A stretch of DNA of 32,000 nt. Source: Erysipelotrichaceae bacterium MTC7 (GTDB taxonomy: Bacteria; Bacillota_I; Bacilli_A; Erysipelotrichales; Erysipelotrichaceae). Where the stretch lies: NCBI GenBank assembly GCA_001695645.1, contig LVZN01000001.1:180001-212000 (forward strand), given 5' to 3'. Each line of letters begins with the position of its first letter. Positions within the stretch are counted from its first letter, which is position 1. Positions 1,246 through 26,142 of the stretch are shown here, piece after piece. Under the pieces are notes generated by a model. The model saw only the letters and a program-made list of their open reading frames with translations. It had not been told where the DNA came from and did not search any database. The translations under genes and the position numbers were made by a program.

Positions 1246-2425
1246 GTAAATCAACCCCCTTATATCGTGCAATTGCTGCAACATCTTTATCACCGCGTCC
1301 CGATAATGTCACAATAATACTATCCTCTTTGGATAAGGTTGGTGCAAGTTTCATGGCATAGGCAATAGCATGACTGCTTTCTATTGCCGGAATGATTCCT
1401 TCGATCCTTGATAAATAATGAAAAGCATCGACAGCTTCATCATCGCTAATGGCAACATAGGTTGCTCTTCCTACATCATGTAAATGTGCATGTTCTGGCC
1501 CAATGCCAGGATAATCAAGACCTGCAGAAATGGAGTATACGGGTGCAATTTGTCCCACCTCGTCCTGACAAAAATAACTTTTCATACCGTGAAAGATACC
1601 TTTTGGACTGTTGGAAGTGATGGTAGCTGCATGAAGTGTACTATCAATTCCTTTACCCGCTGCTTCACAACCAATCAAAGCAACATCTTCATCGTCAATA
1701 AAGTTGTAAAAACTTCCCATGGCATTACTACCTCCACCAACACAAGCAATGATTGCTTTTGGTAAACGTCCTTCCTTTTCCAATACTTGTTCCTTCATCT
1801 CTTGGGAAATAATTGCTTGAAAATCACGAACCATCATCGGAAATGGATGTGGTCCCATCACACTACCAAGTACATAATGTGTATCATCCATGCGACTTGC
1901 CCATTCACGCATCGTCTCATTGACTGCATCTTTTAAGGTTTTTGTCCCTGTAGTTACAGGATGTACTTTTGCCCCTAACAGTTCCATCCGATATACATTT
2001 AAAGCTTGGCGAATCGTATCCTCTTCTCCCATAAAAATCTCACACTCCATGTCCATCAAAGCTGCTGCTGTCGCTGTTGCAACACCGTGTTGTCCTGCAC
2101 CTGTTTCAGCAATGACACGTGTTTTTCCCATCTTTTTTGCCAATAGGACTTGTCCCAGTACATTGTTGATTTTATGCGAACCCGTATGATTCAAGTCTTC
2201 GCGTTTCAAATACACTTTTGCCCCACCAAGATCTTTGCTCATTCGCTTTGCTTCATATAACAAACTCGGTCTTCCTGCATATTCGTTTAGTAGTGTCATC
2301 AATTCTTTTTTGAATGTCTCATCATCTTTCATCGTTTCATAAAAGTCTGTTAATTGATGAATCTCATTCATTAAGGTTTCCGGAATGTACTGTCCTCCGT
2401 GATCACCATATCGTCCATTATTCAT
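1238..2425 (-). CDS. trpB: tryptophan synthase beta chain (PLP-dependent)
   Basis: Contains HTGSHKINN (PLP lysine motif) and [11 protein letters not shown] 2425 forms an ATGA overlap with the trpF stop, and GGAGA lies 7 nt upstream. The ATG at 2431 is too close to that RBS. Confidence 0.93.
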
Positions 2426-3006
2426 ATACATTTCTCCATAATTTCTTTTATCTTTTCTTTATCTTTACAGCCACAACTTTCGACACCACTGCTGATATCA
2501 ACACCATAGTCACAAAGCGCGATTGCTTGTTCAATGTTATCTTTACAAATACCACCCGCTAAAAACGTTGGTTTATCCAGTTTTGGAATAAGTGACCAAT
2601 CAAATTGTTTTCCACTACCTGGATGTTTTGCATCAAGTAAATAATAGTCCACATCATAATGAAGATGTTGATCGACAACTTGATCGATGCATATCGCTTT
2701 GATGATGGGAACTTTAATTCTTTGTTTTAACTCTTTGATATAATTTTCATCTTCTTTTCCATGCAGTTGCACCATATCAATTACCTTATGATGGACTAAT
2801 TTTTCAATCAATTCTACCTTCTCATCAACAAATACGCCAACTGCTTGAATACTAGGGCGCAACATTCCTTTTAATAGGCTTGCCTGTTCAAAACTAACTT
2901 GTCGTTTGCTTGGTGCAAAGACGAACCCTATATGCGTAATGGGAAAACGATTGATAATATACATATCTTCCTTACGTTGCAAGCCACATATTTTTATCGC
3001 TTTCAT
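2422..3006 (-). CDS. trpF: phosphoribosylanthranilate isomerase
   Basis: MKAIKICGL...[11 protein letters not shown]... is TrpF-like. Its position lies between trpC and trpB, with an ATGA overlap with the trpC stop (3003-3006). Confidence 0.88.
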
Positions 3007-3788
3007 AAGTGACCTCGTAGTTCTTCAAAGGTCTGTTTACGATTTTCTGCTTTCATCAAAACTTCACCAATCAAGGCAGCATCTACATGGGCTTGTTCCA
3101 ATGACTCTATATCGGCTCTTGTTTGCACACCACTTTCTGCCACAAACAAGGCATCACTGACACGTTCTTTTAATTTCATCGCGTTTGTGAAATCGACTTG
3201 AAACGTTTTGAGGTTGCGATTGTTCACGCCAATGACTCGTGCTCCTGCTGCTTTGGCTTGTTCGATTTCCAGTACATCGTGTGCTTCCACTAAACAGCTC
3301 ATGCCCAAGTTGTGTGCAAGGTTTATGTATTGCTGTAAACTATGATAATCCAAGATGGACACAATGAGTAAAATCGCATCGGCCCCCATAAGTTTTGCTT
3401 CATAAATCATATACTCATCAACGATGAAATCTTTTCGCAGCAGTGGAAGTTTTACGACTTGTCGAATATCCATAAATACTTGATTATTTCCCAAGAAATA
3501 ATCCGGTTCTGTCAATATGGAAATTGCTTGTGCACCCATTTCTTCATAGTCTTTTGCAATGTCAATATAATCGAAGGTTTCATCAATCACCCCTTTGCTG
3601 GGACTGGCTTTTTTAACTTCTGCAATGATGGAAATTCCTGTTTGTTTTAAAGCTTGTTCAAACGGATAATCAAACCTAGTATTGAGATTTGCTACTTCCT
3701 GTTTCAGTTTTACAAGTGGCATCGATTTCTTTGCTTCGGCAATGCGTTTTTTTCGTGCTAGAACAATACGATCTAAGATATTAGGCAT
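3003..3788 (-). CDS. trpC: indole-3-glycerol-phosphate synthase
   Basis: Contains IAEVKKASPSKG and LLRKDFIVDEYMIYEA, which are TrpC signatures. It overlaps the trpD stop by 8 nt. Confidence 0.92.
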   Translation of the reverse strand: MPNILDRIVLARKKRIAEAKKSMPLVKLKQEVANLNTRFDYPFEQALKQTGISIIAEVKKASPSKGVIDETFDYIDIAKDYEEMGAQAISILTEPDYFLGNNQVFMDIRQVVKLPLLRKDFIVDEYMIYEAKLMGADAILLIVSILDYHSLQQYINLAHNLGMSCLVEAHDVLEIEQAKAAGARVIGVNNRNLKTFQVDFTNAMKLKERVSDALFVAESGVQTRADIESLEQAHVDAALIGEVLMKAENRKQTFEELRGHL

Positions 3789-4788
3789 GACTTAACTCCT
3801 GAAACTGGATAAGTTTATGTAAAGACTGCTTAGAATCAATCAATTCTTTGGCCATTTGCACGCCTTCCTTAATCGAATTTGCTTTTCCTGCAACATACAA
3901 TCCCGCTCCTGCATTAAGTAAGACTGCGTCACGTTTCGCACCTTGCTCACCGCGTAAAATAGAAAGTGTGATTTGGGCATTTTGTTCAGGTGTTCCACCA
4001 ACCAGGTCCGCCTTTTCACCACGTGGCAAACCAACCTCTTCTGGGGTTAAGGTATAGCTACAAATATTTTCTCCACGTAGTTCACAAACTTTCGTCTCAC
4101 TAGAAATAGAAAGTTCATCGAGTCCATCCGTTCCATAGACCACCAAGGCACGTTTAACACCAAGGTTTTTTAGCACTTGTGCAAGTGGTTCAAGCAAGGA
4201 TGCATCATAGACACCCATGACTTGTAACGAAGCACCTGCAGGATTGGTTAAAGGACCAAGGATGTTAAAAATGGTACGTATTTCTAATGTTTTTCGTACA
4301 GGTGCAACATACTTCATGGCAATGTGATAGTTTTGCGCAAACAAGAAACAAATATTTGCTTGATTTAAGATTTCTTTATTTCTTTCCGGAGCAATTTGGA
4401 TATTTACCCCTAGGGCTTCAAGTACATCTGCTGCCCCTGATTTTGAACTTGCTGCTCGATTGCCGTGTTTGGCAACTGGTACACCAGCACTGGCAATGAC
4501 AATCGATGCTGTTGTACTGATGTTGAAGGAGTTGGAATGATCACCACCAGTTCCAACAATCTCTAAGACATCTTCATCATGCAACAAGCGAATGCAATGT
4601 TCACGCATACCTGCAGCACTACCGGTAATCTCTTCAATGGTTTCACCTTTCATACTTAATGCCATAACATATGCACTCATCTGCACTTCACTTGCTTTTC
4701 CTTCCATGATTTCATGCATGCAAGTCTTTGCTTCGTATCGTGTTAAGTCCTCTTGATTTCTTAACTTTTTAATTGCTTCTTTGATCAT
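3781..4788 (-). CDS. trpD: anthranilate phosphoribosyltransferase
   Basis: Contains GTGGDHSNSFNISTTA and KHGNRAASSKSGAADVLEALG, which are TrpD signatures. It overlaps the trpG 3' end by 20 nt. Confidence 0.92.
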   Translation of the reverse strand: MIKEAIKKLRNQEDLTRYEAKTCMHEIMEGKASEVQMSAYVMALSMKGETIEEITGSAAGMREHCIRLLHDEDVLEIVGTGGDHSNSFNISTTASIVIASAGVPVAKHGNRAASSKSGAADVLEALGVNIQIAPERNKEILNQANICFLFAQNYHIAMKYVAPVRKTLEIRTIFNILGPLTNPAGASLQVMGVYDASLLEPLAQVLKNLGVKRALVVYGTDGLDELSISSETKVCELRGENICSYTLTPEEVGLPRGEKADLVGGTPEQNAQITLSILRGEQGAKRDAVLLNAGAGLYVAGKANSIKEGVQMAKELIDSKQSLHKLIQFQELSHA

Positions 4789-5353: not shown

Positions 5354-6792
5354 TTGCTTCCTCCTTGCATCAGTCTCAGTGCTTGATGCAGTGCTCTTGC
5401 TTTGTTTGCACATTCTTCATATTCGCTTTCTGCCTTGCTATCGTAGACGATTCCTGCTCCGGTTTGTATGGATAAGGTATCGTTATGTTTACTTGCAAAG
5501 CGAATTGCAATACATACGTCAAGGTCACCATTGTAGTCCAAATAGCCGATTGTTCCACCATAAATTCCACGTGGTTCTTTTTCTAATCGATGTAAGATTT
5601 TCATCGCTTTTACTTTAGGTGCGCCCGACAAGGTCCCAGCTGGTAAGATGGCATGAATTGCATCAAGTGCACTGTACCCAGGCTTGATTTTAGCTTTGAC
5701 TGTACTTCCCAAATGCATCACGTGTGAGTAGCGAAGAACTTCTAGGTAGCTTGCTACTTCTACACTACCAATGTTTGCCACTTTACCAATATCGTTTCGC
5801 GCTAAATCAACAAGCATGTTGTGTTCTGCAAGTTCTTTATCATCTTGTAATAAAGAAGCTTCCAGTTCTTGATCTTCTTGCTCAGTTTGTCCGCGTTTTC
5901 TTGTCCCTGCCAAAGGAAAAGTAAAGATTTCATCATCTACCACCTTGACCAGTGTTTCCGGGGATGCCCCAGCTACTTCGATATCATCACTACACAAGTA
6001 GAACATGTAAGGTGATGGATTGCTCTTTTTTAACTGTTCGTAAAGTGTCAGCAAATTTCCTTGGCAACGCACCGTTTGTTTATTTGATAAGACCGCTTGA
6101 AAAATATCCCCTTCATAGATATGTTGTTTTATTGTTTCTATCTTCTTCATGAATGATTCTTTGGATTCGCGCATCCGCATGGGACTTGTCATCACAAGTT
6201 CATTCAGCTTTACACCCTGCTTTTCTTTTAGAAAGCTTTGCCAGTAGGAAAATTGCCGTTGTAATGCACTGTAGCTTTCACGAACATTTGTACCATCTAC
6301 ATACCCCGTAATGTACGCCTTTTTCGTTAAGTGATCGAAACAAAGAATGGTATCAAAGGCATATAGATCAAACAGTACTTCATCATTGATGAGTGCTTGC
6401 AGTGCTGGTTCAACAAGATATGCATATTCATAAGCAAAATACCCAACGAGTCCCCCACAAAAACTTGGAAATTCATCGCACTTCATCGCTTTGTGAGTTT
6501 CAAGTAGACTACGGATGTAACCAATTGGGTCTTCACCAACCACATGTCCATCAACATACAGCTGTTGTTGCTTATAAACATAATGATGTTTGGCATCCAA
6601 ACCTAGATAACTATAGCGACCACGCACCTGTTTCTCATAGCTTTCAAAGAGAAAGCACGGTTGTTGTATAGCTTTTATTTTGCATAACAGCTCAAATGGC
6701 GTGAACTCTTCATATCCAAACTCTTCTTTGACTGGTATATAACGAGTCTGTCCATCATTCATTTTTTCAATCATTGCAAGTGTTGGTTGCAT
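5350..6792 (-). CDS. trpE: anthranilate synthase component I
   Basis: Contains LSGAPKVKAMKIL and RGIYGGTIGYLD, the chorismate-binding TrpE motifs. AGGAGG (6800-6805 on +) lies 7 nt upstream of the ATG at 6792. Confidence 0.93.
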   Translation of the reverse strand: MQPTLAMIEKMNDGQTRYIPVKEEFGYEEFTPFELLCKIKAIQQPCFLFESYEKQVRGRYSYLGLDAKHHYVYKQQQLYVDGHVVGEDPIGYIRSLLETHKAMKCDEFPSFCGGLVGYFAYEYAYLVEPALQALINDEVLFDLYAFDTILCFDHLTKKAYITGYVDGTNVRESYSALQRQFSYWQSFLKEKQGVKLNELVMTSPMRMRESKESFMKKIETIKQHIYEGDIFQAVLSNKQTVRCQGNLLTLYEQLKKSNPSPYMFYLCSDDIEVAGASPETLVKVVDDEIFTFPLAGTRKRGQTEQEDQELEASLLQDDKELAEHNMLVDLARNDIGKVANIGSVEVASYLEVLRYSHVMHLGSTVKAKIKPGYSALDAIHAILPAGTLSGAPKVKAMKILHRLEKEPRGIYGGTIGYLDYNGDLDVCIAIRFASKHNDTLSIQTGAGIVYDSKAESEYEECANKARALHQALRLMQGGSK

Positions 6793-6794
6793 AA

Positions 6795-7075
6795 GCGTTC
6801 CTCCTAATAAACAAAAAAATCCATCCCTGACAAAAATATTGTCAAGGACGGATTATACCGCGGTGCCACCTTGTTTCATGTTCTAAAAAAACATGCGCTT
6901 TGTAAGATGCTATCACATCTCTTGCTACTCACGTAAGCAGTCACGTCAGAAGGTACTAAGCATTGTTGCTTTTCATTCTGCCCTCTGTGGTCCATTTGTT
7001 AGGCTGCGTTCTGCTTGTTTCCACCATCCAAGCTCTCTAGTAGTGCACACGTTAACGTTATCTCCACTTCATCGG
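6795..7075 (-). promoter_or_regulatory. T-box riboswitch leader (tRNA-Trp sensing) of the trp operon
   Basis: The minus-strand elements appear in canonical order: AG-bulge AGAGAG (7038-7033), distal-loop GGTGGAAA (7025-7018), candidate specifier UGG followed by A (6994-6991), T-box sequence GGTGGCACCGCG (6870-6859), then the terminator. Confidence 0.85.
6812..6853 (-). terminator. T-box expression-platform terminator
   Basis: On the minus strand: ATCCGTCCTTGAC (6853-6841), a 9-nt loop, then GTCAGGGATGGAT (6831-6819). This gives a 13-bp stem with 2 G-U pairs, followed by U7 (6818-6812). Confidence 0.85.
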
Positions 7076-7088
7076 TTTAATTTTCAAA

Positions 7089-7118
7089 ATAATAACACTA
7101 AATAAAATACAAAGTCAA
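7089..7118 (-). promoter_or_regulatory. candidate sigma-A promoter of the trp leader
   Basis: On the minus strand: TTGACT (7118-7113), 18 nt spacer, TATTAT (7094-7089), just upstream of the T-box Stem I. Confidence 0.4.
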
Positions 7119-7126
7119 TATAAATT

Positions 7127-7151
7127 ACAAAATAGGATATAAATTCCTATT
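7127..7151 (-). terminator. intrinsic terminator ending the ABC-TCS-galE operon
   Basis: A 7-bp stem, AATAGGA (7131-7137) / TCCTATT (7145-7151), with a 7-nt loop. The minus strand continues TTTTGTAATTT. It lies 5 nt after the stop at 7156. Confidence 0.5.
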
Positions 7152-7155
7152 GAGT

Positions 7156-8076
7156 TTATGTAAATCTCCATAACGGTGTAGGGTATTTTTGTTCATCAAT
7201 TAAGCTTTGAATCCCTTGTTTTACAAGCTCTTTATCTTCTTGATATGTTACCCCATACCATGTATCTTGACTTGAAAACACTTGAACGGTTAGTGTGTTT
7301 TGTTTGATCAATCGCCCAATCTCATCGGATAAGAAATACTCTGCTTTCAATGGGTTGTAAATGACTTCATGTTGATAAAATGATGTAAATCTTTGACCCA
7401 TTTGTTTTATAAACTGTGGCTGAAATCCCCACATGTTTAAAGATACCAAAGTATCGTTTGGCAACGTTTGTTTACACGCTCCAACCGTATCAACGATACA
7501 TGCTTCTCCATTGGTATTCCGTGAAATGTTACAAGTTTCCACGATACTTTGAAGGCGATGATCTTCAATATGACAAATACCACGCGATACACTTCCGTGA
7601 TCGCTAATGGTCTTATTCACATGATAAGCAATCATTGCACACGTATGTTCATCATGATTATGACTTAGAAACTCATGCATTTTATCATATGCCGATTGTC
7701 CATAGTAGTCATCTGCGTTGATCACACAGAACGGTGTGTCAACGATTCCTTCACAACACATAATTGCATGTCCAGTTCCCCATGGTTTTTGACGGTTTTC
7801 TGGCACTTGCAAACGATTAGGAATGTGCGCAAGTTCTTGATATACATATTTTACTGGGATCATCTTGGCAATTTTATTGCCAATAGTTCGTTTAAAATCA
7901 TCCTCAATTTCTTGCTTTATCACAAATACAACTTCGTTAAAACCCGCTTGTATGGCATCGAATACACTAAGTTCTAAGATAATTTCACCATTAGGACCAA
8001 TGGGATCCATTTGTTTCAATCCACCGTAGCGACTTCCCATTCCTGCTACTAGTACTACAAGACTAGTTTTCTTCAT
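7156..8076 (-). CDS. sugar-1-phosphate nucleotidyltransferase family protein (substrate unknown)
   Basis: The N-terminal LVVLVAGMGSRYGGLKQMDPIG matches the GxG(T/S)R nucleotidyltransferase signature. The start is set at ATG 8076 (MKKTSL); the GTG at 8085 in the ORF track lies deeper inside galE. It overlaps galE by 14 nt. Confidence 0.7.
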   Translation of the reverse strand: MKKTSLVVLVAGMGSRYGGLKQMDPIGPNGEIILELSVFDAIQAGFNEVVFVIKQEIEDDFKRTIGNKIAKMIPVKYVYQELAHIPNRLQVPENRQKPWGTGHAIMCCEGIVDTPFCVINADDYYGQSAYDKMHEFLSHNHDEHTCAMIAYHVNKTISDHGSVSRGICHIEDHRLQSIVETCNISRNTNGEACIVDTVGACKQTLPNDTLVSLNMWGFQPQFIKQMGQRFTSFYQHEVIYNPLKAEYFLSDEIGRLIKQNTLTVQVFSSQDTWYGVTYQEDKELVKQGIQSLIDEQKYPTPLWRFT

Positions 8077-17216: not shown

Positions 17217-17411
17217 TTATTTTTTAACTTTGTCTTTTAATTCATCGAATTTATCTTCAACTGCATCTTTTGCATCTCCAGCTTTATCTGCTACATCTTC
17301 ACCAAAGTCTTTCACTTTATCAGCAGCTTCTTTCGCCTTATCTGATACATCTTTTCCAAAATCTTCTGCTTTGTCTTTCAATTCATCTAATTTGTTTTTT
17401 AAATCTGCCAT
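17217..17411 (-). CDS. small highly charged repeat protein (64 aa; stress-protein/LEA-like composition)
   Basis: The protein is MADLKNKLDELKDKAEDFGKDVSDKAKEAADKVKDFGEDVADKAGDAKDAVEDKFDELKDKVKK. AGGAG lies 9 nt upstream and the gene has its own terminator. Internal repeats are DFG(K/E)DV(S/A)DKA x2 and (L/F)DELKDK at both ends. Confidence 0.7.
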   Translation of the reverse strand: MADLKNKLDELKDKAEDFGKDVSDKAKEAADKVKDFGEDVADKAGDAKDAVEDKFDELKDKVKK

Positions 17412-18391: not shown

Positions 18392-18468
18392 GAAGATACC
18401 ACATATAACACTCTTACTAATCAAACTTTACAAGTAATAGTTTTTTAATCACATGCAAGTGATAAAAC

Positions 18469-18481
18469 TTGGGAACAGCGT
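18469..18481 (+). repeat. IR core W-a (5' edge of TRD-A')
   Basis: TTGGGAACAGCGT is the inverted copy of 21111-21123 and 21690-21702, and 19/21 over TTGGGAACAGCGTnAGTTnGG. Confidence 0.85.
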
Positions 18482-18958
18482 GAGTTGGGAGAATACCTAG
18501 AATTTTCCAATATAAAAAATAAAGAAGATAGTTATTCAAGGAGTGAGGTGCTTTCTGTTTCAAGTACGTTGGGGGTCGTAAATCAACTTGAATTAAAAGG
18601 AAGATCTTTTGCTGGGGAGTCGCTAAAAGGTTATTACATTGTGAAAAATAGAGATGTGATTTATGCAAAGTCCATTTCTAGCAATAATCCTTATGGGACA
18701 ATACGGACTAATCGCATTCATGAAGGCGTTGTTTCGCCACTTTATGCAGTTTTTAAGCCAAAGGAGAATGTCCATCCTGAATTTGTTCAAGTTTACTTTG
18801 AGTTAGATACAAGAATGAACAATTATATTTTCCCATTAGTTAATATGGGAGACAGGTTTATTCAAGTTTCGGGAAACGATGTAATCAGTGGAAATGTAAT
18901 ATTCCCTAGAATTGAAGAGCAAATGAAGATTTCATTGTTTTTTGATTCTCTCGACCAA

Positions 18959-18975
18959 ACTATTACTCTTCATCA
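18959..18975 (+). repeat. IR core L-a (3' edge of TRD-A')
   Basis: ACTATTACTCTTCATCA is a perfect 17-bp inverted copy of 21214-21230. Confidence 0.9.
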
Positions 18976-19035
18976 TCGTGAGATTTTTTCATTTTCCACG
19001 TTTTTTTACGTGTTTTTTATCATTTTCACAATAAC

Positions 19036-19054
19036 TTGGGAACATCGTAAGTTA
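19036..19054 (+). repeat. IR core W-b (5' edge of TRD-B')
   Basis: TTGGGAACATCGTAAGTTA matches the inverted hsdS copies (TTGGGAACAGCGTAAGTTA) at 18 of 19 positions. Confidence 0.85.
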
Positions 19055-19520
19055 TCTGATGTGATGTCTAAATTTATTGTCCCTATGCGAGATAAGCCAA
19101 AAGAGTTTGGTGGAGATATTCCATGGACTCGGATTGAAGATATTGAAGGAAAATTTCTTAATGATAGTTTATCAGGTCAATATGTTTCGGAAGACATTGT
19201 TCAAAAAATGAATCTTAAGATTATCCCTGCAGGTTCGTTAATCGTCTCTGCAAGTGCGACATTTGGTGTAGTTGCCGTTGTGACACGAGATTTGATCACA
19301 AACCAAACATTTATTGGACTTGTACCGAGAAAGGAATTCGATGTCGATTTCTTATATACATTTTTACAATCGCCTACTGTGCAACGTAAGATGAGATTGG
19401 AATCGGCTGGTTCAACTATCTTCTATATTTCTAGGCAAACGTTTGAGAATATGAGTTTTGCGACACCTGAGAAAGATGAACAACATAAGATTGGAGCTTT
19501 CTTCGCGAGTTTGGACACAA

Positions 19521-19536
19521 CTATCACTCTTCATCA
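19521..19536 (+). repeat. IR core L-b (3' edge of TRD-B')
   Basis: CTATCACTCTTCATCA is a perfect 16-bp inverted copy of 20623-20638. Confidence 0.9.
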
Positions 19537-19588
19537 AAAACAGTGACTATTACTGTTTTAGAAATACACATATAAAGGAGGTGCAATT

Positions 19589-20509
19589 ATGCAAAAAGAA
19601 AATATGTTATTTCAAGATTATTTTATTGAATGGGTTAATTTATATAAAAGCGGTGCGGTCCGAGATGTCACCATAACAAAATACAAAATCGCACACAAGA
19701 ATCTTATAAAACTTGCCCCAATATTGAAAATTTCAGAGTTAGATCGTAAGTCTTATCAAAAGCTTTTGAATGATTATGCATTAACGCACGAAAAGCAGAC
19801 AACAATGGATTTTCATCATCTATTAAAAGGTTCCATACTTGATGCATTAGAAGAAGGTTATATTGATATCGATCCAACAAGAAAAGTGGTAATTAAAGGT
19901 AAAACTCCAAGAAAAAAGAAGATCAAGTATTTAAATCAATTCGAATTACAAAAACTTGTGAGTGAATTAACCCTTAATGAAGTTGTTTCCTGGGATTGGT
20001 TGATATTACTGATCGCTAAAACAGGATTACGTTTTTCAGAAGCTCTAGCTTTAACACCAGAAGACTTTGACTTCACGAGACAAGTAATTAATGTAAGTAA
20101 GACATGGGATTATAAATCTATAAACGGTGGATTTGAACCAACTAAAAACAAGGCTTCCATGAGAAAAGTACAAATAGATTGGCATACAACGATGCAACTC
20201 AATCCACTACTTAAAGAACTTCCAAAAAATGATCCCATTTTTGTGGGTGGAAGAGTTTTTAACTCAACAATCAATAATCGACTAAAAAAATACTGTGAAA
20301 AAGCTAATATTCCTGTAATCTCTGTACACGGACTAAGACACACACATGCCTCTCTACTACTGTTTGCTGGAGTTTCAATTGCCAGTGTTGCTCATAGATT
20401 AGGTCATTCTAATATGACAACAACACAAAAAACATATTTGCATGTGATTCAAGAGTTAGAAAACCAAGATAATGACAAAGTTATGCGTTATCTCTCTGCA
20501 CTTTGTTAA
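19589..20509 (+). CDS. tyrosine site-specific recombinase (phage-integrase family), candidate hsdS invertase
   Basis: The catalytic set is visible: TGLRFSEAL (Arg I), HGLRHTHAS (HxxR) and LGHSNMTTTQKTYLHV (His/Tyr). AAAGGAGG lies 7 nt upstream. The gene sits between hsdS' and hsdS. Confidence 0.88.
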   Translation: MQKENMLFQDYFIEWVNLYKSGAVRDVTITKYKIAHKNLIKLAPILKISELDRKSYQKLLNDYALTHEKQTTMDFHHLLKGSILDALEEGYIDIDPTRKVVIKGKTPRKKKIKYLNQFELQKLVSELTLNEVVSWDWLILLIAKTGLRFSEALALTPEDFDFTRQVINVSKTWDYKSINGGFEPTKNKASMRKVQIDWHTTMQLNPLLKELPKNDPIFVGGRVFNSTINNRLKKYCEKANIPVISVHGLRHTHASLLLFAGVSIASVAHRLGHSNMTTTQKTYLHVIQELENQDNDKVMRYLSALC

Positions 20510-20535
20510 TTACTGTTTCACTGTAAAAGTACCAA

Positions 20536-20558
20536 AGGACGCAATTAAATTGCGTCCT
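20536..20558. terminator. palindromic hairpin between the convergent recombinase and hsdS genes
   Basis: AGGACGCA attaaat TGCGTCCT. The minus strand continues TTTGGTACTTTT. It lies 3 nt after the hsdS stop (20562-20564). Confidence 0.65.
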
Positions 20559-20622
20559 ACTCTATATAAACATTTTTTGAAGATATGCTTTCTTTAGTTC
20601 CTGTAATTTTTCGATTTTTTTC

Positions 20623-20638
20623 TGATGAAGAGTGATAG
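20623..20638 (-). repeat. IR core L-2 (3' edge of TRD2 of hsdS)
   Basis: The reverse complement reads CTATCACTCTTCATCA and pairs with 19521-19536. Confidence 0.9.
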
Positions 20639-21094
20639 CGTAATCAAATTGCTCAAAAAGCGCACCGATTTTGTCTTGTTCTACGATGTTAGGTATCATC
20701 ACAGGCATTTTAGACATTTGTTTTCCAGATATCTCTACGAATGTTGATCCTGCTCCCATTACTTCTCCGTACCGTTTTAATTCATGTGATCGTGAAAAAA
20801 TGAAGTAACTGTTTAGTACATTTTTATGAGGTACGATTGACTGAAAGCCTTGGTTAGTAGTTGCTTCTTTGGCCAAAATAGCGGTGTTTCCGATCCCAGC
20901 ACGTGAAGTAAACAGAACAGTTCCAACTGGCAAGATTTTAGTTGAACTCTTCATTCGACCAAGGTCAGTGATTGTTCGCTGACTCTTAGCAACATATATT
21001 TCTTCTCCAATTTCAGCTGGCGTATACCAATCAATATCACCATTCCAATATTCTGCATTCGACGTGCTTGGAGTCCCTCCCCCAATTATATCAG

Positions 21095-21123
21095 CAACTT
21101 TGCCTAACTTACGCTGTTCCCAA
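21095..21123 (-). repeat. 29-bp repeat W-2 (central conserved region, 5' edge of TRD2)
   Basis: The reverse complement reads TTGGGAACAGCGTAAGTTAGGCAAAGTTG. It is a perfect direct repeat of 21674-21702 and is inverted relative to 18469-18481 and 19036-19054. Confidence 0.9.
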
Positions 21124-21213
21124 GCATCAGTAAAACCATCAAATCGCACACTTTGATCGAAAATTTTCTGTAGAAAACCACTCTTTACCGTTTTCATACG
21201 TTCTAACTCTTTC

Positions 21214-21230
21214 TGATGAAGAGTAATAGT
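21214..21230 (-). repeat. IR core L-1 (3' edge of TRD1 of hsdS)
   Basis: The reverse complement reads ACTATTACTCTTCATCA and pairs with 18959-18975. Confidence 0.9.
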
Positions 21231-21673
21231 ATTGTCTATGTTTTCAAATAAATGGCCGATTTTAACTTGCTCTTTCATATTAGGATAACCAATTTCATAT
21301 GGTTCAATGTGTTTATTATTAATTTGAGGAATGGTGGATGTATCGGCTATTTTATATAGCCCAGTTCGACCTATAAATGTATAAAGAAATTTATAATTAA
21401 TATCCACCGGTTCTAATGCCATTATATTAGTATCCATATATGCATCTCTTCCTAATATTCGTACTTTATTCGTGAGTATAGCTGCTCCTCTTTTAGGGAA
21501 AATAATACTTCCTCTTTTTATCTTTTATTATCTTTCATGAGGTTTTACGTTCCAAATACTTCTGTCTTGAATTCGTGCGGAATAGTTCAGGTCATCTACT
21601 TTAATATATGGTTCTGAATCTTGACTCTCAGAAGTAATAAATTCAGATGGGGACCATCCCGACCTAATATTAA

Positions 21674-21702
21674 CAACTTTGCCTAACTTACGCTGTTCCC
21701 AA
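21674..21702 (-). repeat. 29-bp repeat W-1 (N-terminal conserved region, 5' edge of TRD1)
   Basis: Identical to 21095-21123, 579 bp (193 codons) away in the same orientation. Confidence 0.9.
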
Positions 21703-21744
21703 TCATCAGTGAACCCACTAAACCTAATTAATGGTTTTTTCTTA

Positions 21745-23349
21745 TCATTCATGACGGAACACCTTTTTTGTTGCTTCTATGATATCTTTACTTTCATCTG
21801 TAATGGCAAGCTGATTTACTAGCTCTAGAAATTCTTTCTCAGTTTGCTTAATTTCGTTGTTGATTTCTTCAATTTCCTTGCAAACTTGAACAATATCAAT
21901 TGGTTCTTCTTCTTCAAAAGTATCTACATACCTTGGAATATTTAAATTGTATTCATTTTCTTTAATTTCAGCCATGGTAGCTAAGTGAGAATACTTATCA
22001 ATTTCTTCTCTATTCTTGAATGTATCTACAATTTTATCAACATTGTCATTCGTAAGTCGATTTTGATTTTTACCGGACTCAAATTCGTTTGATGCATCAA
22101 TGAACAATACATGTTCATTATCTTCTCTACATTTTTTGAATACTAAAATACAGGTTGGAATTGACGTTCCAAAGAATATGTTAGCTGGCAAACCAATAAC
22201 CGCATCTAAGTAATTCTTTTCCTTGATTAAGAATGTACGAATCACACCTTCTGCTGCCCCTCTAAAAAGCACACCGTGTGGTAGTACAACTGCAAGAGTA
22301 CCATTTTCATCTAAGTGATAAATCATATCTTGTACGAAGGCAAAGTCAGCTTTTGATTTTGGTGCAAGTTTACCGTATTGGCTAAATCTTGGGTCTAATA
22401 AAAACTTCTGGTCTGCGCTCCAGTTCGCACTATAAGGTGGATTGGCAACAATTGCTTCAAAGGTTTGATCTTCACCAATCATTGGGTGTGTTAGTGTATC
22501 CGTGTTGTAAATTGCAAAATCTTTATATCTAATGTCATGCAACAACATATTCATTCGTGCCAAGTTATATGTAGTTGTATTTAATTCCTGCCCATAGTAA
22601 TTATAAACATGTGCGTGTTTACCTACACGCAGCAACAAAGACCCCGATCCACAAGCTGGGTCATATACACTTCGAAGATCTTTTTTATCTATGGTTACAA
22701 TGCGTGTAAGGATTTCAGACACTTGTTGTGGTGTATAGAATTCGCCTGCTTTTTTCCCTGCACTAGCTGCAAACTGTGAAATCAAAAATTCATACGCATC
22801 ACCAAGCACATCAATTTCTGCTTCTCCAATCCCAAAATTGATTTGATCTATGTTATTCATGACTTTTGCAATCAGCTCAGTCCTAGAATTATTATCGCGT
22901 CCAAGTTTGGAACTTTGTAGATCCATATCATCAAATAAGTGATTGAAATCATCTTCAGAATCACGACCGATAGTAGATTCTTCAATCTCATTAATTGCTT
23001 GCTGTAACATTTCGATTTCAAAATCTCCAGTGCGAATTTTTTCAATTAATGTAGAAAATAAGAATTTAGGATCAATAACATATCCCAATCCTCGAATCAT
23101 CTCTTCAACCAAAGTATCTTTAAGTTCGTCACTATTCCAAGCATCAGCATAAGAAATATTATCGTCATCACCTAAAAGTGTATTTGAATAGTCGATTACT
23201 TTTTCTGAAAGAAAACGATAAAAAATCAAACCTAGGATGTAATTCTTAAAGTCACTAGCATCCATGCTTCCTCGTAAATCATTTGCAATCGCCCATAATT
23301 TCTTATTCAGTTCAGCTTGTTGCACTACTTGTTTTTGCTCAACAGTCAT
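21745..23349 (-). CDS. hsdM: Type I restriction-modification system, N6-adenine DNA methyltransferase subunit
   Basis: The HsdM N-terminal region reads LWAIANDLRGSMDASDFKNYILGLIFYRFLSEK. The AdoMet motif is DPACGSGSLL and the catalytic motif is IVANPPYS. AAGGAGA lies upstream. Confidence 0.93.
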   Translation of the reverse strand: MTVEQKQVVQQAELNKKLWAIANDLRGSMDASDFKNYILGLIFYRFLSEKVIDYSNTLLGDDDNISYADAWNSDELKDTLVEEMIRGLGYVIDPKFLFSTLIEKIRTGDFEIEMLQQAINEIEESTIGRDSEDDFNHLFDDMDLQSSKLGRDNNSRTELIAKVMNNIDQINFGIGEAEIDVLGDAYEFLISQFAASAGKKAGEFYTPQQVSEILTRIVTIDKKDLRSVYDPACGSGSLLLRVGKHAHVYNYYGQELNTTTYNLARMNMLLHDIRYKDFAIYNTDTLTHPMIGEDQTFEAIVANPPYSANWSADQKFLLDPRFSQYGKLAPKSKADFAFVQDMIYHLDENGTLAVVLPHGVLFRGAAEGVIRTFLIKEKNYLDAVIGLPANIFFGTSIPTCILVFKKCREDNEHVLFIDASNEFESGKNQNRLTNDNVDKIVDTFKNREEIDKYSHLATMAEIKENEYNLNIPRYVDTFEEEEPIDIVQVCKEIEEINNEIKQTEKEFLELVNQLAITDESKDIIEATKKVFRHE

Positions 23350-23361
23350 TGTATTCTCCTT

Positions 23362-26142
23362 CTACTCATATTTCATTCCAAGTGATTCAATGTCTTGGAC
23401 AAAGTCTTTTTTCTTTTTGCTTTTCTCAAGTAATCCACCTTTCATATCTTGGATAACTTTTGTTCCATCGATATATCCTACGAACTCTTGTTCCGCCACA
23501 TAGGCGGCAACTTTATTGTAATCAAGGTCATACTTGTTTGATAACTTTTTCATTTCATAGAGTTTTTGTTCAGATTCAAACTCTTCTAGTTTAAATGAAA
23601 TATCATCATCTTCATTTAAAGTTGGGACCACTTTTTCTAAGAACATTTCGATTAACTCACGCTTGCTTCTTAGCTTTTCATCAGTTGCAGTTTTTAGAAT
23701 TTCCAAGATATTTTTAATATCTTTAATCTGTTTTGTACGATCTGTTAGCTCAATGTTTTGAATTAATTCAAGTATATATCCAACATCAATTTTATCAGTT
23801 CGAATCAATTCCAATTCAAAATCAATTTCCTGAAGCACAGATACTTTATCTTTTTCTATCTTTCTTGTTAGTTCATAATAACGGCCTTTATAATCTTCAA
23901 ATTCTTGTTCATTCATTGGAACATCTTTCCAGTCAAACTCATTAAACGTTTTTAAGGATATTGCTGTTCTAGCAAGTAACTTAAAGAGACGAATAAACTT
24001 TGCTTTTTGATCATCCGTTTCTAATGCATCAATTGAATCTAATGTTGGTACAATTTTCTTAAACGCAATGTACGCATTTTTGAATTCTTCTACATAATAT
24101 GCATATTCTTTCATAAGAACATTGTTAACATCTTCTGTTTGTGAGAACAGTTTTATTGCATCATCAGTGTTTTTCTTAAGATTTTGAAAGCATACGATAT
24201 TCCCATATTGTTTTGTTGCATCATAAATCCGATTAGTCCGTGAATATGCTTGGATTAACGTGTGATAACGAAGGTTTCTGTCCACATATAATGTGTTTAA
24301 CCGTCTTGCATCAAATCCTGTTAGAAACATATCGACAACTAACAAAATATCTATTTCTGTATTTTTTACACGTTTAGACAAATCGATAAAGTATTGAAGA
24401 TAGGTGTCCGTTGAGTAGTTTGTTCCAAACATGACATTATAGTCATCAATAATGTTTTGCAACATATCTCGTTGATGTATCTTTTCACCTGTTTCATTTT
24501 TATAATCTTCCTGAAGTTGACTATTGGCAGCATAAGAGAAAATTGCTCCAATCTTTAGTGGTTTATCAAGCTCTTTATTTTTTTCTTGAAATTGGTTGTA
24601 GTATTGATATAAAAGTGGAACTCCACCTTCACTCGTATTCACTGTAAACATGGCATTAAATGTTCGATTGACCGTTTTCATATCATGATGCTTTACGATT
24701 TCTTCAACAATATTACGCGTTCTTTCCTCTGAGGTTAAGATTTCATAAGTATTTATTCCTTCAACTTTTTCTTCGATTGCTCCTTCTTCACGCCAATCGA
24801 CAGATTTATAATACTCTACCTTAAACCCTAGTACATTTCCATCATGTATCGCATCTTTTATCAAATAACTATGTAAGTTTTCACCGAATATATCCGCAGT
24901 AGAACGTCCGTCAATACTCTTATTCACAGAGAATCGTGGTGTCCCTGTAAACCCGAAATATTGCGCATTATCAAAATACATGTCGATTTCTTTGTGCATG
25001 TCTCCAAACTGTGAACGATGACACTCATCAATGATAAATACAACACGTTTGTCTTTATATTGTCCCAATTTCTGTGGATATTTTTTTACTGCATTCGATA
25101 ACTTTTGAATCGTTGTAACGATAAGTTTTTTATTATTATCATTTATTTGTTTTACAAGTTGATTTGTTGAGTTGGTCGTATCGATGCTATCTGGACAAAA
25201 CTTATTAAATTCTTCAATGGTCTGTGAATCTAAGTCTCTTCGATCAACCAAGAAAAATATTTGGTCAACTTTCTCATTATCTTGTAAGATTTGACTAGCT
25301 TTAAATGAAGTTAGTGTTTTACCAGATCCTGTTGTGTGCCATATATATCCGTTTCTATTTGAATTCTCAACTCTGTGGATAATTGCTTCAACTGCATATA
25401 CTTGGTATGGCCTTAGTACCATTAAGTTTTTTTCCGACTCATAAATAACCGTATATCTTGCAATCATTTTTGCAATATGACACTTTTCTAAAAAAAACGT
25501 CGTAAACTCTTTCAGGTTGTTATAGCGATTGTTTTTATCGTCTGTCCAATAAAACGTGTACTTTGAAGATAGCTCTTTTCCACTATTCCCCAGGTATTTT
25601 GTATCTGTCCCATTGCTAATTACAAAAATTTGAATGAAACGAAATAACTTTGTATATTTGTATGAATGTAGTTGGTATCTTGTGATTTGATGAAATGCCT
25701 CATCTGTGTTTCCACCCCTACGTTTTAGTTCAATCTGAACCAATGGCAGCCCATTGATTAAAATTGTAACATCATAGCGATTTTCGTACTTTCCTTGTAT
25801 GGTAATTTGATTAGCTACTTGAAAGATATTTTTACACCAATCGCGTTTGTTGAATAATTCAAGGTATAAAACAGTTCCATCATCACGTGTAATATTTTGC
25901 AAATTCCTTAGAATTTTTGCTGAATCATAAACACCCTTATTTGAAATCAATTGCATTAATCTATCGAATTCACTGTCAGATAAATCACGATTTTTTAATC
26001 GATCTTTATTATGTTTGTTAAGTTGGGTTCTAAAATTATGAATCAAAGACACTTCGTCTTTGACATTAACTCTTTCATATCCCATATTTACTAAGCGTTC
26101 AACTAACTGTTCTTCTAATTGTGCCTCACTTTGATAACCCAT
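23362..26142 (-). CDS. hsdR: Type I restriction enzyme, R (helicase/endonuclease) subunit
   Basis: Contains the Walker A/motif I sequence HTTGSGKT and the DEAD-box variant FIIDECHRSQ. The N-terminal MGYQSEAQLEEQLV... is typical of HsdR. The 926-aa gene lies directly upstream of hsdM (12-nt gap). Confidence 0.92.
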   Translation of the reverse strand: MGYQSEAQLEEQLVERLVNMGYERVNVKDEVSLIHNFRTQLNKHNKDRLKNRDLSDSEFDRLMQLISNKGVYDSAKILRNLQNITRDDGTVLYLELFNKRDWCKNIFQVANQITIQGKYENRYDVTILINGLPLVQIELKRRGGNTDEAFHQITRYQLHSYKYTKLFRFIQIFVISNGTDTKYLGNSGKELSSKYTFYWTDDKNNRYNNLKEFTTFFLEKCHIAKMIARYTVIYESEKNLMVLRPYQVYAVEAIIHRVENSNRNGYIWHTTGSGKTLTSFKASQILQDNEKVDQIFFLVDRRDLDSQTIEEFNKFCPDSIDTTNSTNQLVKQINDNNKKLIVTTIQKLSNAVKKYPQKLGQYKDKRVVFIIDECHRSQFGDMHKEIDMYFDNAQYFGFTGTPRFSVNKSIDGRSTADIFGENLHSYLIKDAIHDGNVLGFKVEYYKSVDWREEGAIEEKVEGINTYEILTSEERTRNIVEEIVKHHDMKTVNRTFNAMFTVNTSEGGVPLLYQYYNQFQEKNKELDKPLKIGAIFSYAANSQLQEDYKNETGEKIHQRDMLQNIIDDYNVMFGTNYSTDTYLQYFIDLSKRVKNTEIDILLVVDMFLTGFDARRLNTLYVDRNLRYHTLIQAYSRTNRIYDATKQYGNIVCFQNLKKNTDDAIKLFSQTEDVNNVLMKEYAYYVEEFKNAYIAFKKIVPTLDSIDALETDDQKAKFIRLFKLLARTAISLKTFNEFDWKDVPMNEQEFEDYKGRYYELTRKIEKDKVSVLQEIDFELELIRTDKIDVGYILELIQNIELTDRTKQIKDIKNILEILKTATDEKLRSKRELIEMFLEKVVPTLNEDDDISFKLEEFESEQKLYEMKKLSNKYDLDYNKVAAYVAEQEFVGYIDGTKVIQDMKGGLLEKSKKKKDFVQDIESLGMKYE

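Follow-up and report, generated by a model that had tools for sequence, protein, structure and literature searches.

A probable recombinase-driven invertible Type I restriction-modification specificity locus with an interrupted expression copy of hsdS in Erysipelotrichaceae bacterium MTC7

Introduction

The genome of Erysipelotrichaceae bacterium MTC7 carries a Type I restriction-modification (R-M) locus in which a tyrosine recombinase gene lies between two oppositely oriented copies of the specificity gene hsdS, and this arrangement raises the question of whether the locus switches its specificity by DNA inversion, which of the known inverting systems it resembles most closely, and what kind of specificity subunit its sequenced arrangement would produce. 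The window analyzed here is the whole stretch of 32,000 nucleotides from position 180,001 to 212,000 of contig LVZN01000001.1, and all coordinates below are positions within it. Gene order, protein domains, and short inverted sequences at the edges of the target recognition domains (TRDs) indicate that this is probably a recombinase-driven invertible Type I R-M specificity locus of the kind described in Listeria monocytogenes sequence type 8 (ST8) and in Enterococcus faecalis (Efa4125I, EfiA-type). The known picture of phase-variable Type I systems is unchanged by this locus. Its interest is modest and lies in a nonsense-interrupted expression copy, a helix-less subtype with implied two-step switching, and the near-universal core sequence of a very large recombinase family.

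Gene Content and Organization of the Locus

The genes hsdR, hsdM, and hsdS form one operon-like block on the minus strand, so that the Type I gene set is complete, though hsdS contains two in-frame stops. An intact hsdR (23362..26142) encodes a protein of 926 aa with HSDR_N, SWI2_SNF2, ResIII, T1R_D3-like, and EcoR124_C domains, which is an EcoR124-like (Type IC-like) set. The hsdM gene (21745..23349), also intact, encodes 534 aa with HsdM_N and N6_Mtase (E=9e-113) domains, and its end overlaps by 8 nt the start of the expression-site hsdS (20562..21752), for which a Methylase_S match was obtained (E=3.4e-37 on a 291-aa part). The layout of this hsdS runs from the N-terminus through core A1, TRD1, core B1, a central helix, core A2, TRD2, and core B2 to a C-terminal helix.

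Transcribed toward hsdS from the opposite side, the recombinase gene (19589..20509, plus strand) is intact (306 aa), matches Phage_integrase (E=3e-22), and has a ribosome-binding site (AAGGAGG) 42 nt 3′ of the stop codon of the second hsdS copy, hsdS′. The R/HxxR/H...Y catalytic set claimed for it in the initial annotation is readable in the sequence as R (TGLRFSE), HGLRH, and LGH...KTYLH, and its PDB matches are phage and Tn916-type integrases. Both this protein and the hsdM product have 100% identical counterparts among the MTC7 proteins, an integrase and a subunit M, respectively, which confirms the source of the sequence. The hsdS′ frame (18449..19546, plus strand) is a second TRD-bearing copy, inverted relative to hsdS and without a start of its own, in which two stretches matched Methylase_S (E=3.5e-28). 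The order of hsdR-hsdM-hsdS on the minus strand followed by the recombinase and hsdS′ on the plus strand, as proposed in the initial annotation, is thus borne out by open reading frames (ORFs) and Pfam domains, including the two profile searches that it had suggested (Methylase_S on 18449-19546 and Phage_integrase on 19589-20509), both of which gave matches. Its description of hsdS′ needs a small correction: an in-frame TAA does stand upstream (18446-18448) and no in-frame ATG precedes the conserved motif, but the frame opens six codons ahead of TWEQR (SHASDK-TWEQR) and not exactly at it.

Between the convergent hsdS and recombinase genes lies a hairpin with a 10-bp stem (20536..20558, unstranded), which is likely a terminator. 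The 61-nt stretch 20510-20570 folds with a minimum free energy of -16.1 kcal/mol (z = -2.85), which agrees with the hairpin reported earlier after hsdS; the T-run terminator rule did not pick up the hairpin at 20536-20558.

Putative Recombination Cores A and B

Two short sequences are found at the edges of all four TRDs, both of them inverted between the hsdS and hsdS′ loci. Core A (TTGGGAACAGCGT) occurs at 18469 (+), 19036 (+, one mismatch), 21111 (-), and 21690 (-), that is, four matches against 0.04 expected from shuffled sequence, and core B (CTATYACTCTTCATCA) at 18960 (+), 19521 (+), 20623 (-), and 21214 (-), four matches against 0.01 expected. The 5′ edge of every TRD is marked by core A, which encodes WEQRKL, and the 3′ edge by core B, which encodes TITLHQ. 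On the minus strand, TRD1 is bounded by core A1 (TTGGGAACAGCGTAAGTTAGG, 21682..21702, encoding WEQRKL) and core B1 (ACTATTACTCTTCATCA, 21214..21230, encoding TITLHQ), and TRD2 by core A2 (21103..21124) and core B2 (CTATCACTCTTCATCA, 20623..20638). On the plus strand, TRD-a (18482-18958) lies between core A1′ (18469..18481) and core B1′ (18959..18975), and TRD-b (19055-19520) between core A2′ (TTGGGAACAtCGTAAGTTA, 19036..19054) and core B2′ (19521..19536), the last of which stands 8 nt ahead of the stop. All four repeat sets listed in the initial annotation lie where it had placed them, and the same two cores do flank every TRD, each at four sites. A repeat search also found no long central repeat at the locus, in agreement with the earlier claim: exact inverted repeats do not exceed 17 nt, and among extended repeats the longest measure 22 nt (91%) and 38 nt (76%).

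The constraint on these cores was assessed in 80 related loci (L004-L083) that encode recombinase relatives at 62-72% identity, with one genome per species; 41 of these relatives have full flanks, and the codon counts cover hsdS genes of the recombinase-bearing loci. The core A sample comprised 143 WE[QKE]RK[LF] sites in 59 of the 80 loci, which means that the WEQRK core occurs more than once per locus, and the core B sample comprised 63 sites in 36 loci. At core A, Gln is encoded by CAG in 137 of 139 cases (background 35%), Arg by CGT in 142 of 143 (background 23%), and Lys by AAG in 136 of 143 (background 33%), while the Glu before and the Leu after the fixed stretch show background codon usage. 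A similar bias is seen at core B, where Leu is CTT (58/62; background 17%), Gln is CAG (50/63; background 35%), and Arg is CGT (41/47; background 23%). All core copies in the window use CAG, CGT, CTT, and ACT, codons that account for 17, 32, 20, and 20% of their codon families, respectively, in the window genes' own usage. Because constraint at the protein level cannot fix synonymous positions almost completely across genera, selection acts on the DNA itself, a constraint of the kind that would be expected for recombinase sites. A protein search with the recombinase returned at least 8000 candidates, with 63-73% identity among the matches listed, and the finding that the core codons are conserved in dozens of genera suggests that a very large recombinase family has a single recombination site in common.

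In most full-length related loci that were examined, WEQRK cores in inverted orientation lie on either side of the recombinase gene. A central repeat of some 40 nt or longer, with a maximum of 385 nt, is found in about half of the 41 full-flank relatives, whereas the remaining ones have, like the window, short repeats only (about 12-36 nt). The cores had been described in the initial annotation as unusually short; given these relatives and the 15-16 nt cores documented in Listeria and E. faecalis, short shared cores are instead typical of this family. In the family consensus of the 80 related loci, both cores end in a common element CAGCGTAAGTT (WEQRKL, LHQRKL), and cores A and B may be variants of one site. 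A dyad symmetry (AACTT...AAGTT) around core A in the window's silent copies is not kept in the family consensus and was dropped.

Further evidence comes from a sister strain, represented by three contigs (L001-L003) with a 99% identical recombinase. Their identity to the window is 99% in the block 19520-20647, which holds core B′, the recombinase gene, and core B2, and 80-92% in the block 18893-19062, which comprises the end of TRD-a, core B1′, the spacer, and core A2′. The TRDs between the conserved blocks are unrelated. The ends of the conserved blocks fall within about 10 nt of cores A2′, B2′, and B2, which matches the prediction of cassette exchange at the cores. What is seen here is TRD replacement between strains, as judged from aligned sequences, and it is no demonstration of inversion within a strain. 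On L001, positions 1-97 and 1728-1824 form a 97-nt inverted repeat with 99% identity that is common to the 3′ ends of the silent TRD-a and the expressed TRD2. The ends of the sister contigs at cores were considered as a sign of population heterogeneity, a candidate that we rejected since this inverted repeat (30 nt in the Logan unitig) better explains the Logan/ENA breaks.

Comparison With Known Inverting Systems

The assignment to the class of recombinase-driven inverting Type I architectures, made in the initial annotation, is supported by the domains, the gene order, and the match of the cores to published junctions. As comparators, it had named the pneumococcal ivr and Mycoplasma pulmonis hsd loci; the closest relatives are instead the Listeria ST8 and E. 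faecalis EfiA-type loci. Compared with the junctions of these two systems, the window cores are identical at 14-16 of 15-17 positions, and the recombinase is 63-68% identical to same-position integrases of other Enterococcus and Listeria species (63-67% in related Enterococcus loci).

The hsd locus of L. monocytogenes ST8/CC8 (clonal complex 8; LMR479A_0528-0532) exists in four variants among near-identical genomes, which are related by inversions (Fagerlund et al., 2016, PMC4783014). Its junctions are agcttgggaacagcgt for a 3.3-kb element and ctatcgctcttcatcagcgtaagttagat for a 2.3-kb element, with repeats of 16 and 29 nt (PMC4783014). The window shares with this locus the gene order and the presence of short repeats only; gcttgggaacagcgt and ctatc[g/a]ctcttcatcag are essentially its cores, and its A1′-A1 and B1′-B1 elements measure 3.23 and 2.27 kb against 3.3 and 2.3 kb in Listeria. 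The two loci differ in that both hsdS copies of Listeria have helices, with the result that a single inversion gives a new complete allele (a four-way switch), whereas in the window the silent copy is without helices and the expressed copy has two stops. The central repeat of Listeria also runs on into CGTAAGTTAGAT, whereas the B cores of the window stop after CATCA.

In E. faecalis, inversion of the Efa4125I/EfaH25I locus by the invertase EfiA, a clade 4 "epigenetic inverton," has been confirmed by PCR and sequencing (Huang et al., 2020, PMC7672463). The inversion sites are TGGGAACAGTGTAAG (15 bp) and ATCACTCTTCATCAGCGTAAG... (30-60 bp), each resulting allele leads to a different methylation motif, with four motifs shown experimentally, and 382 loci with clade-4 (EfiA) invertases were counted, 274 of them in Firmicutes (PMC7672463). 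The order hsdR-hsdM-hsdSA-invertase (efiA)-hsdSB is that of the window, and the inversion sites match cores A and B. In contrast to the window, the E. faecalis locus has a 30-60 bp central repeat over the helix and two hsdS genes described as full length, and its inversion has been shown by experiment.

The two systems named earlier share more general features with the window. In the M. pulmonis hsd1/hsd2 loci (HvsR, clade 6), site-specific inversion likewise makes chimeric hsdS genes, but the gene for the recombinase lies outside these loci and the enzyme acts on vsa genes as well, and both hsdS copies are full genes that flank hsdM and hsdR. The Streptococcus pneumoniae SpnD39III/ivr (cod) locus with CreX/PsrA (clade 1) has an expressed hsdS, a silent partial hsdS, and a locus-encoded tyrosine recombinase, and one of its functional repeats is also only 15 bp; its invertase, of another clade, shows marginal homology only, and its core sequences are different. 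The long ivr-type repeats, which we take to be 85 and 333 bp, have no counterpart in the window, and the MTC7 recombinase groups with the Listeria and Enterococcus loci, which sets the locus apart from the SpnD39III/ivr type.

Atack et al. print the SpnD39III repeats as "15, 85, and 33 bp." The RecombinationRepeatSearch screen (Atack et al., 2020) requires one or more perfect (100% identical) inverted repeats of 20 bp or longer no farther than 30 kb from hsdS, and since the longest exact inverted repeat of the window is 17 nt, the locus would be missed by it. For annotation, the recombinase in combination with the conserved cores TGGGARCAGCGTAAG and ATYACYCTTCATCA is a better guide to this locus than screens for perfect repeats of at least 20 bp.

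Interrupted Expression-Site hsdS and Helix-Less Silent Cassettes

Two tandem in-frame stop codons (TAA TAA, 21525..21530, minus strand) occupy codons 75 and 76 of the expression-site hsdS, inside TRD1, a break that the initial annotation had missed. The translation around them reads NVKPHER, the two stops, and KIKRGSIIFPKRGAA, with the same frame on both sides. In an alignment with homologues that share 56-65% identity over TRD1, the stops face Tyr/Phe and Gln/Lys and no indel is present, so that they represent two neighboring point changes and TRD1 is well preserved apart from them. The sequenced arrangement should accordingly make no full-length HsdS, and without a full-length specificity subunit the restriction barrier and the methylome of MTC7 may be off or heterogeneous. 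The remainder of this copy includes a central conserved (coiled-coil) spacer (KELERMKTVKSGFLQKIFDQSVRFDGFTDA, 21124..21213, minus strand), which is found only here and aligns with the helix of homologues, and the C-terminal helix of HsdS (KKIEKLQELKKAYLQKMFI, 20565..20622, minus strand), the sole copy in the locus, which lies inside the segment that B2′ and B2 would invert.

Both coiled-coil spacers, central and C-terminal, are missing from hsdS′, a point absent from the initial annotation. A 60-nt T-rich spacer (18976..19035, plus strand) stands where the central coiled-coil helix would be, and the frame ends with TLHQKQ and a stop, two codons past core B, without a C-terminal helix. In L001 of the sister strain, the reading frame differs between the silent cassettes on either side of the spacer. 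The lack of helices, the T-rich spacer, and this difference in frame indicate that hsdS′ is best read as two silent cassettes and not as one gene.

Helix-less cassettes, defined as silent TRDs whose frame closes no more than eight codons from core B, were identified in 6 of 41 related loci, including those of Lacticaseibacillus thailandensis, Dubosiella newyorkensis, and a Ruminococcus metagenome-assembled genome (MAG) with five tandem cassettes; the layout is therefore not unique to the MTC7 genome. The L. thailandensis locus (L018; right arm, about 5912-7400) has the same layout as the window, with two helix-less silent cassettes in different frames and repeats of only 17-20 nt, and its expression-site hsdS also seems broken by a frameshift just past core A2. 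In the Ruminococcus MAG (L065, 2655-4930), each of the five tandem silent TRDs ends in DNLITLHQRK, followed by a short non-helix spacer, an enlarged form of the layout seen in the window.

The spacer of the window itself holds a terminator-like hairpin, CACGT-TTTTTT-ACGTG (18997-19012), followed by the T run TTTTTTAT. Should this hairpin act as a terminator, expression of the recombinase would depend on a promoter within TRD-b, where a promoter-like site (9/12) is present at 19363-19392.

Predicted Switching and Rival Explanations

If the MTC7 recombinase acts as in the documented relatives, it would recombine pairs of oppositely oriented cores, A with A and B with B, and because A lies at the 5′ side and B at the 3′ side of all four TRDs, the TRDs could act as cassettes. 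The action of the recombinase on these cores in MTC7, its choice of core pairs, and the reading of the present arrangement as an OFF state and not as incipient decay are inferred. The consequences were explored by a simulation in which the locus was treated as signed segments and recombination was permitted between any two core A copies of opposite orientation and, by the same rule, between core B copies. From the present state, each of the eight single inversions that this allows left behind hsdM a frame that ends in KQ and a stop, without the C-terminal helix, which means that no complete HsdS was obtained per inversion as it is in the EfiA/Listeria ST8 type. Since the silent locus has neither helices nor a start codon, one inversion would give a helix-less, prematurely stopped frame and thus an OFF or aberrant state. 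Complete alleles (A-TRD-B-central helix-A-TRD-B-C-terminal helix) arose only after an even number of inversions, with two of them replacing one TRD. A nested pair, one through A and one through B, would swap a single TRD cleanly and yield a new full-length HsdS, and TRD-a or TRD-b in place of TRD1 would restore an intact hsdS. In principle, 12 ordered TRD pairs can be reached in the simulation, six of which avoid the broken TRD1. With Listeria-type pairs only (A1×A1′, B1×B1′), the states are TRD1+TRD2 (present, dead), two aberrant ones, and TRD-a+TRD2 (intact).

Several points weigh against an inverting locus of the Listeria ST8/EfiA kind. The expressed hsdS is a pseudogene in this assembly, which could mean decay and not a parked OFF state. 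The loss of the C-terminal helix in every single inversion looks costly, unlike in the proven four-way switches. The exact repeats are merely 13-17 nt, and the B cores of the window hold only the left part of the family consensus, without the CGTAAGTT that follows CATCAG in the Listeria/Enterococcus junctions. The recombinase comparison covered only homologues from other Enterococcus and Listeria species (63-68% identity). Finally, no second arrangement of the MTC7 locus was found by exact-protein and junction look-ups in public data. Within these searches, exact-protein look-ups with the window recombinase and hsdM returned nothing; metagenome scans for the start of TRD-a and for the junction of the hsdS N-terminus with core A1 gave no match; an hsdM search recovered, above 70% identity, the genome's own protein only; and a look-up for near-identical recombinases returned only the three short sister-strain contigs, whose different TRDs make them uninformative on inversion in MTC7. 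Among eight loci with a 2+2 core layout, the same TRD family was found in both position classes, in a sample too small to speak for position-independent shuffling.

Some of these points would also be explained if the locus were a decaying or locked remnant of an invertible system that no longer works as R-M or as a switch, with the stops in TRD1, the helix-less hsdS′, and the short B cores all products of erosion. The tandem nonsense codons and the B cores lacking the CGTAAGTT half of the family consensus fit this explanation, the architectural twin in L. thailandensis likewise has a frameshifted expressed hsdS, and the inactivated loci of Listeria SHL004 and Lm_1889 show that such an outcome happens (PMC4783014). 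We nevertheless regard decay as unlikely, given that open frames remain in hsdR (926 aa), in hsdM (534 aa), in the recombinase gene, and in three TRDs out of four and that conservation extends to every one of the eight cores. Apart from its stops, TRD1 shows 56-65% identity to intact homologues and no indels, so that the damage is recent and limited, and the occurrence of helix-less cassettes in 6 of 41 loci, including the five-cassette array of Ruminococcus, argues for a maintained design. It is much harder to sustain the view that the inverted repeats merely reflect the WEQRKL and TITLHQ peptide motifs and that the recombinase is an unrelated integrase not acting on them. The cores do coincide exactly with conserved peptide motifs, and their exact repeats are only 13-17 nt, but the synonymous positions show near fixation in 59 loci of many genera, in contrast to the unconstrained Glu and Leu codons next to them, and the same sequences are the observed inversion junctions in Listeria (PMC4783014) and E. 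faecalis (PMC7672463). Together with the size of the recombinase family (at least 8000 candidates, 63-73% identity among the matches listed) and the inverted WEQRK cores that flank the recombinase gene in most full-length related loci examined, this makes a mere by-product of protein motifs very improbable.

Least probable of all, and hardly credible in our opinion, is a tvr/SpnIV-like excision and reintegration in which the recombinase would act on direct core repeats within each hsdS locus, with no inversion. Cores A and B are indeed also directly repeated within each locus, and Lactobacillus delbrueckii JCM 15610 offers a 1.4-kb deletion variant between co-oriented hsdS copies. The two hsdS loci of the window are, however, mutually inverted, so that only inversion brings silent TRDs to the expression site; an A1-A2 excision would simply cost a TRD, and the documented relatives invert (PMC7672463, PMC4783014). 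Recombinase-driven inversion at cores A and B thus remains the preferred reading. A further proposal goes beyond it, namely that helix-less, core-bounded cassettes represent a distinct operating mode with paired inversions only, obligatory OFF intermediates, and the use of any cassette in either position (up to 12 ordered pairs, 6 without TRD1), in which the nonsense-bearing TRD1 would serve as a built-in OFF cassette and not be a sign of decay. We consider this mode possible but doubtful. The helix-less subtype nevertheless raises the question of two-step switching in some shufflons.

Recombinase Relatives at Other Loci and Minor Observations

Recombinases that are 64-66% identical to that of MTC7 are encoded in an archaeon (L083, chromosome of Methanimicrococcus hongohii, with a 155-bp inverted repeat around the gene) and in Akkermansia MAGs (L047, L060; Verrucomicrobia). 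Such a distribution suggests wide horizontal spread of the whole module.

A more distant homologue (58.7%) is found in plasmids of Ligilactobacillus salivarius (L084-L089; NZ_CP114511/16/14/29/18/47, about 2230-4431), where it adjoins two divergent ORFs with GbpC/Spa domains and no hsdS. The annotated lengths of these ORFs vary between otherwise identical plasmids (798+1053, 1104+747, and 1011+975 nt), and the locus looks like a surface-adhesin shufflon that may be run by the same recombinase family. As adhesin loci without hsdS, these plasmid matches were rejected as hsd examples.

The plasmids pLD01 and pLD02 of L. delbrueckii JCM 15610 (L090/L091) carry identical integrase and LysR genes. 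They differ by the 1.4-kb deletion between two co-oriented hsdS copies mentioned above, with the junction in a 124-nt shared region, and probably represent a single locus in two alternative forms that were entered as separate plasmids, a type of mis-annotation that has been described by Huang et al. (PMC7672463). The pair was not retained as an example of inversion, because it differs by a direct-repeat deletion and shows no inversion at cores.

The AT-richness of the locus is marginal. The initial annotation had regarded the block as AT-rich, and its GC content (0.336) is indeed below that of the sequence outside it (0.373), but the near flanks (0.337-0.356) hardly differ, and a clearly lower GC content is seen only in hsdR (0.319) and in the recombinase gene (0.327). 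The idea of an AT-rich island is unconvincing in view of these near flanks. Outside the locus, a 64-aa ORF at 17217-17411 (minus strand) encodes a repetitive, highly charged K/D/E-rich peptide (…DKAKEAADKVKDFGEDVADKAGDAKDAVEDKF…).

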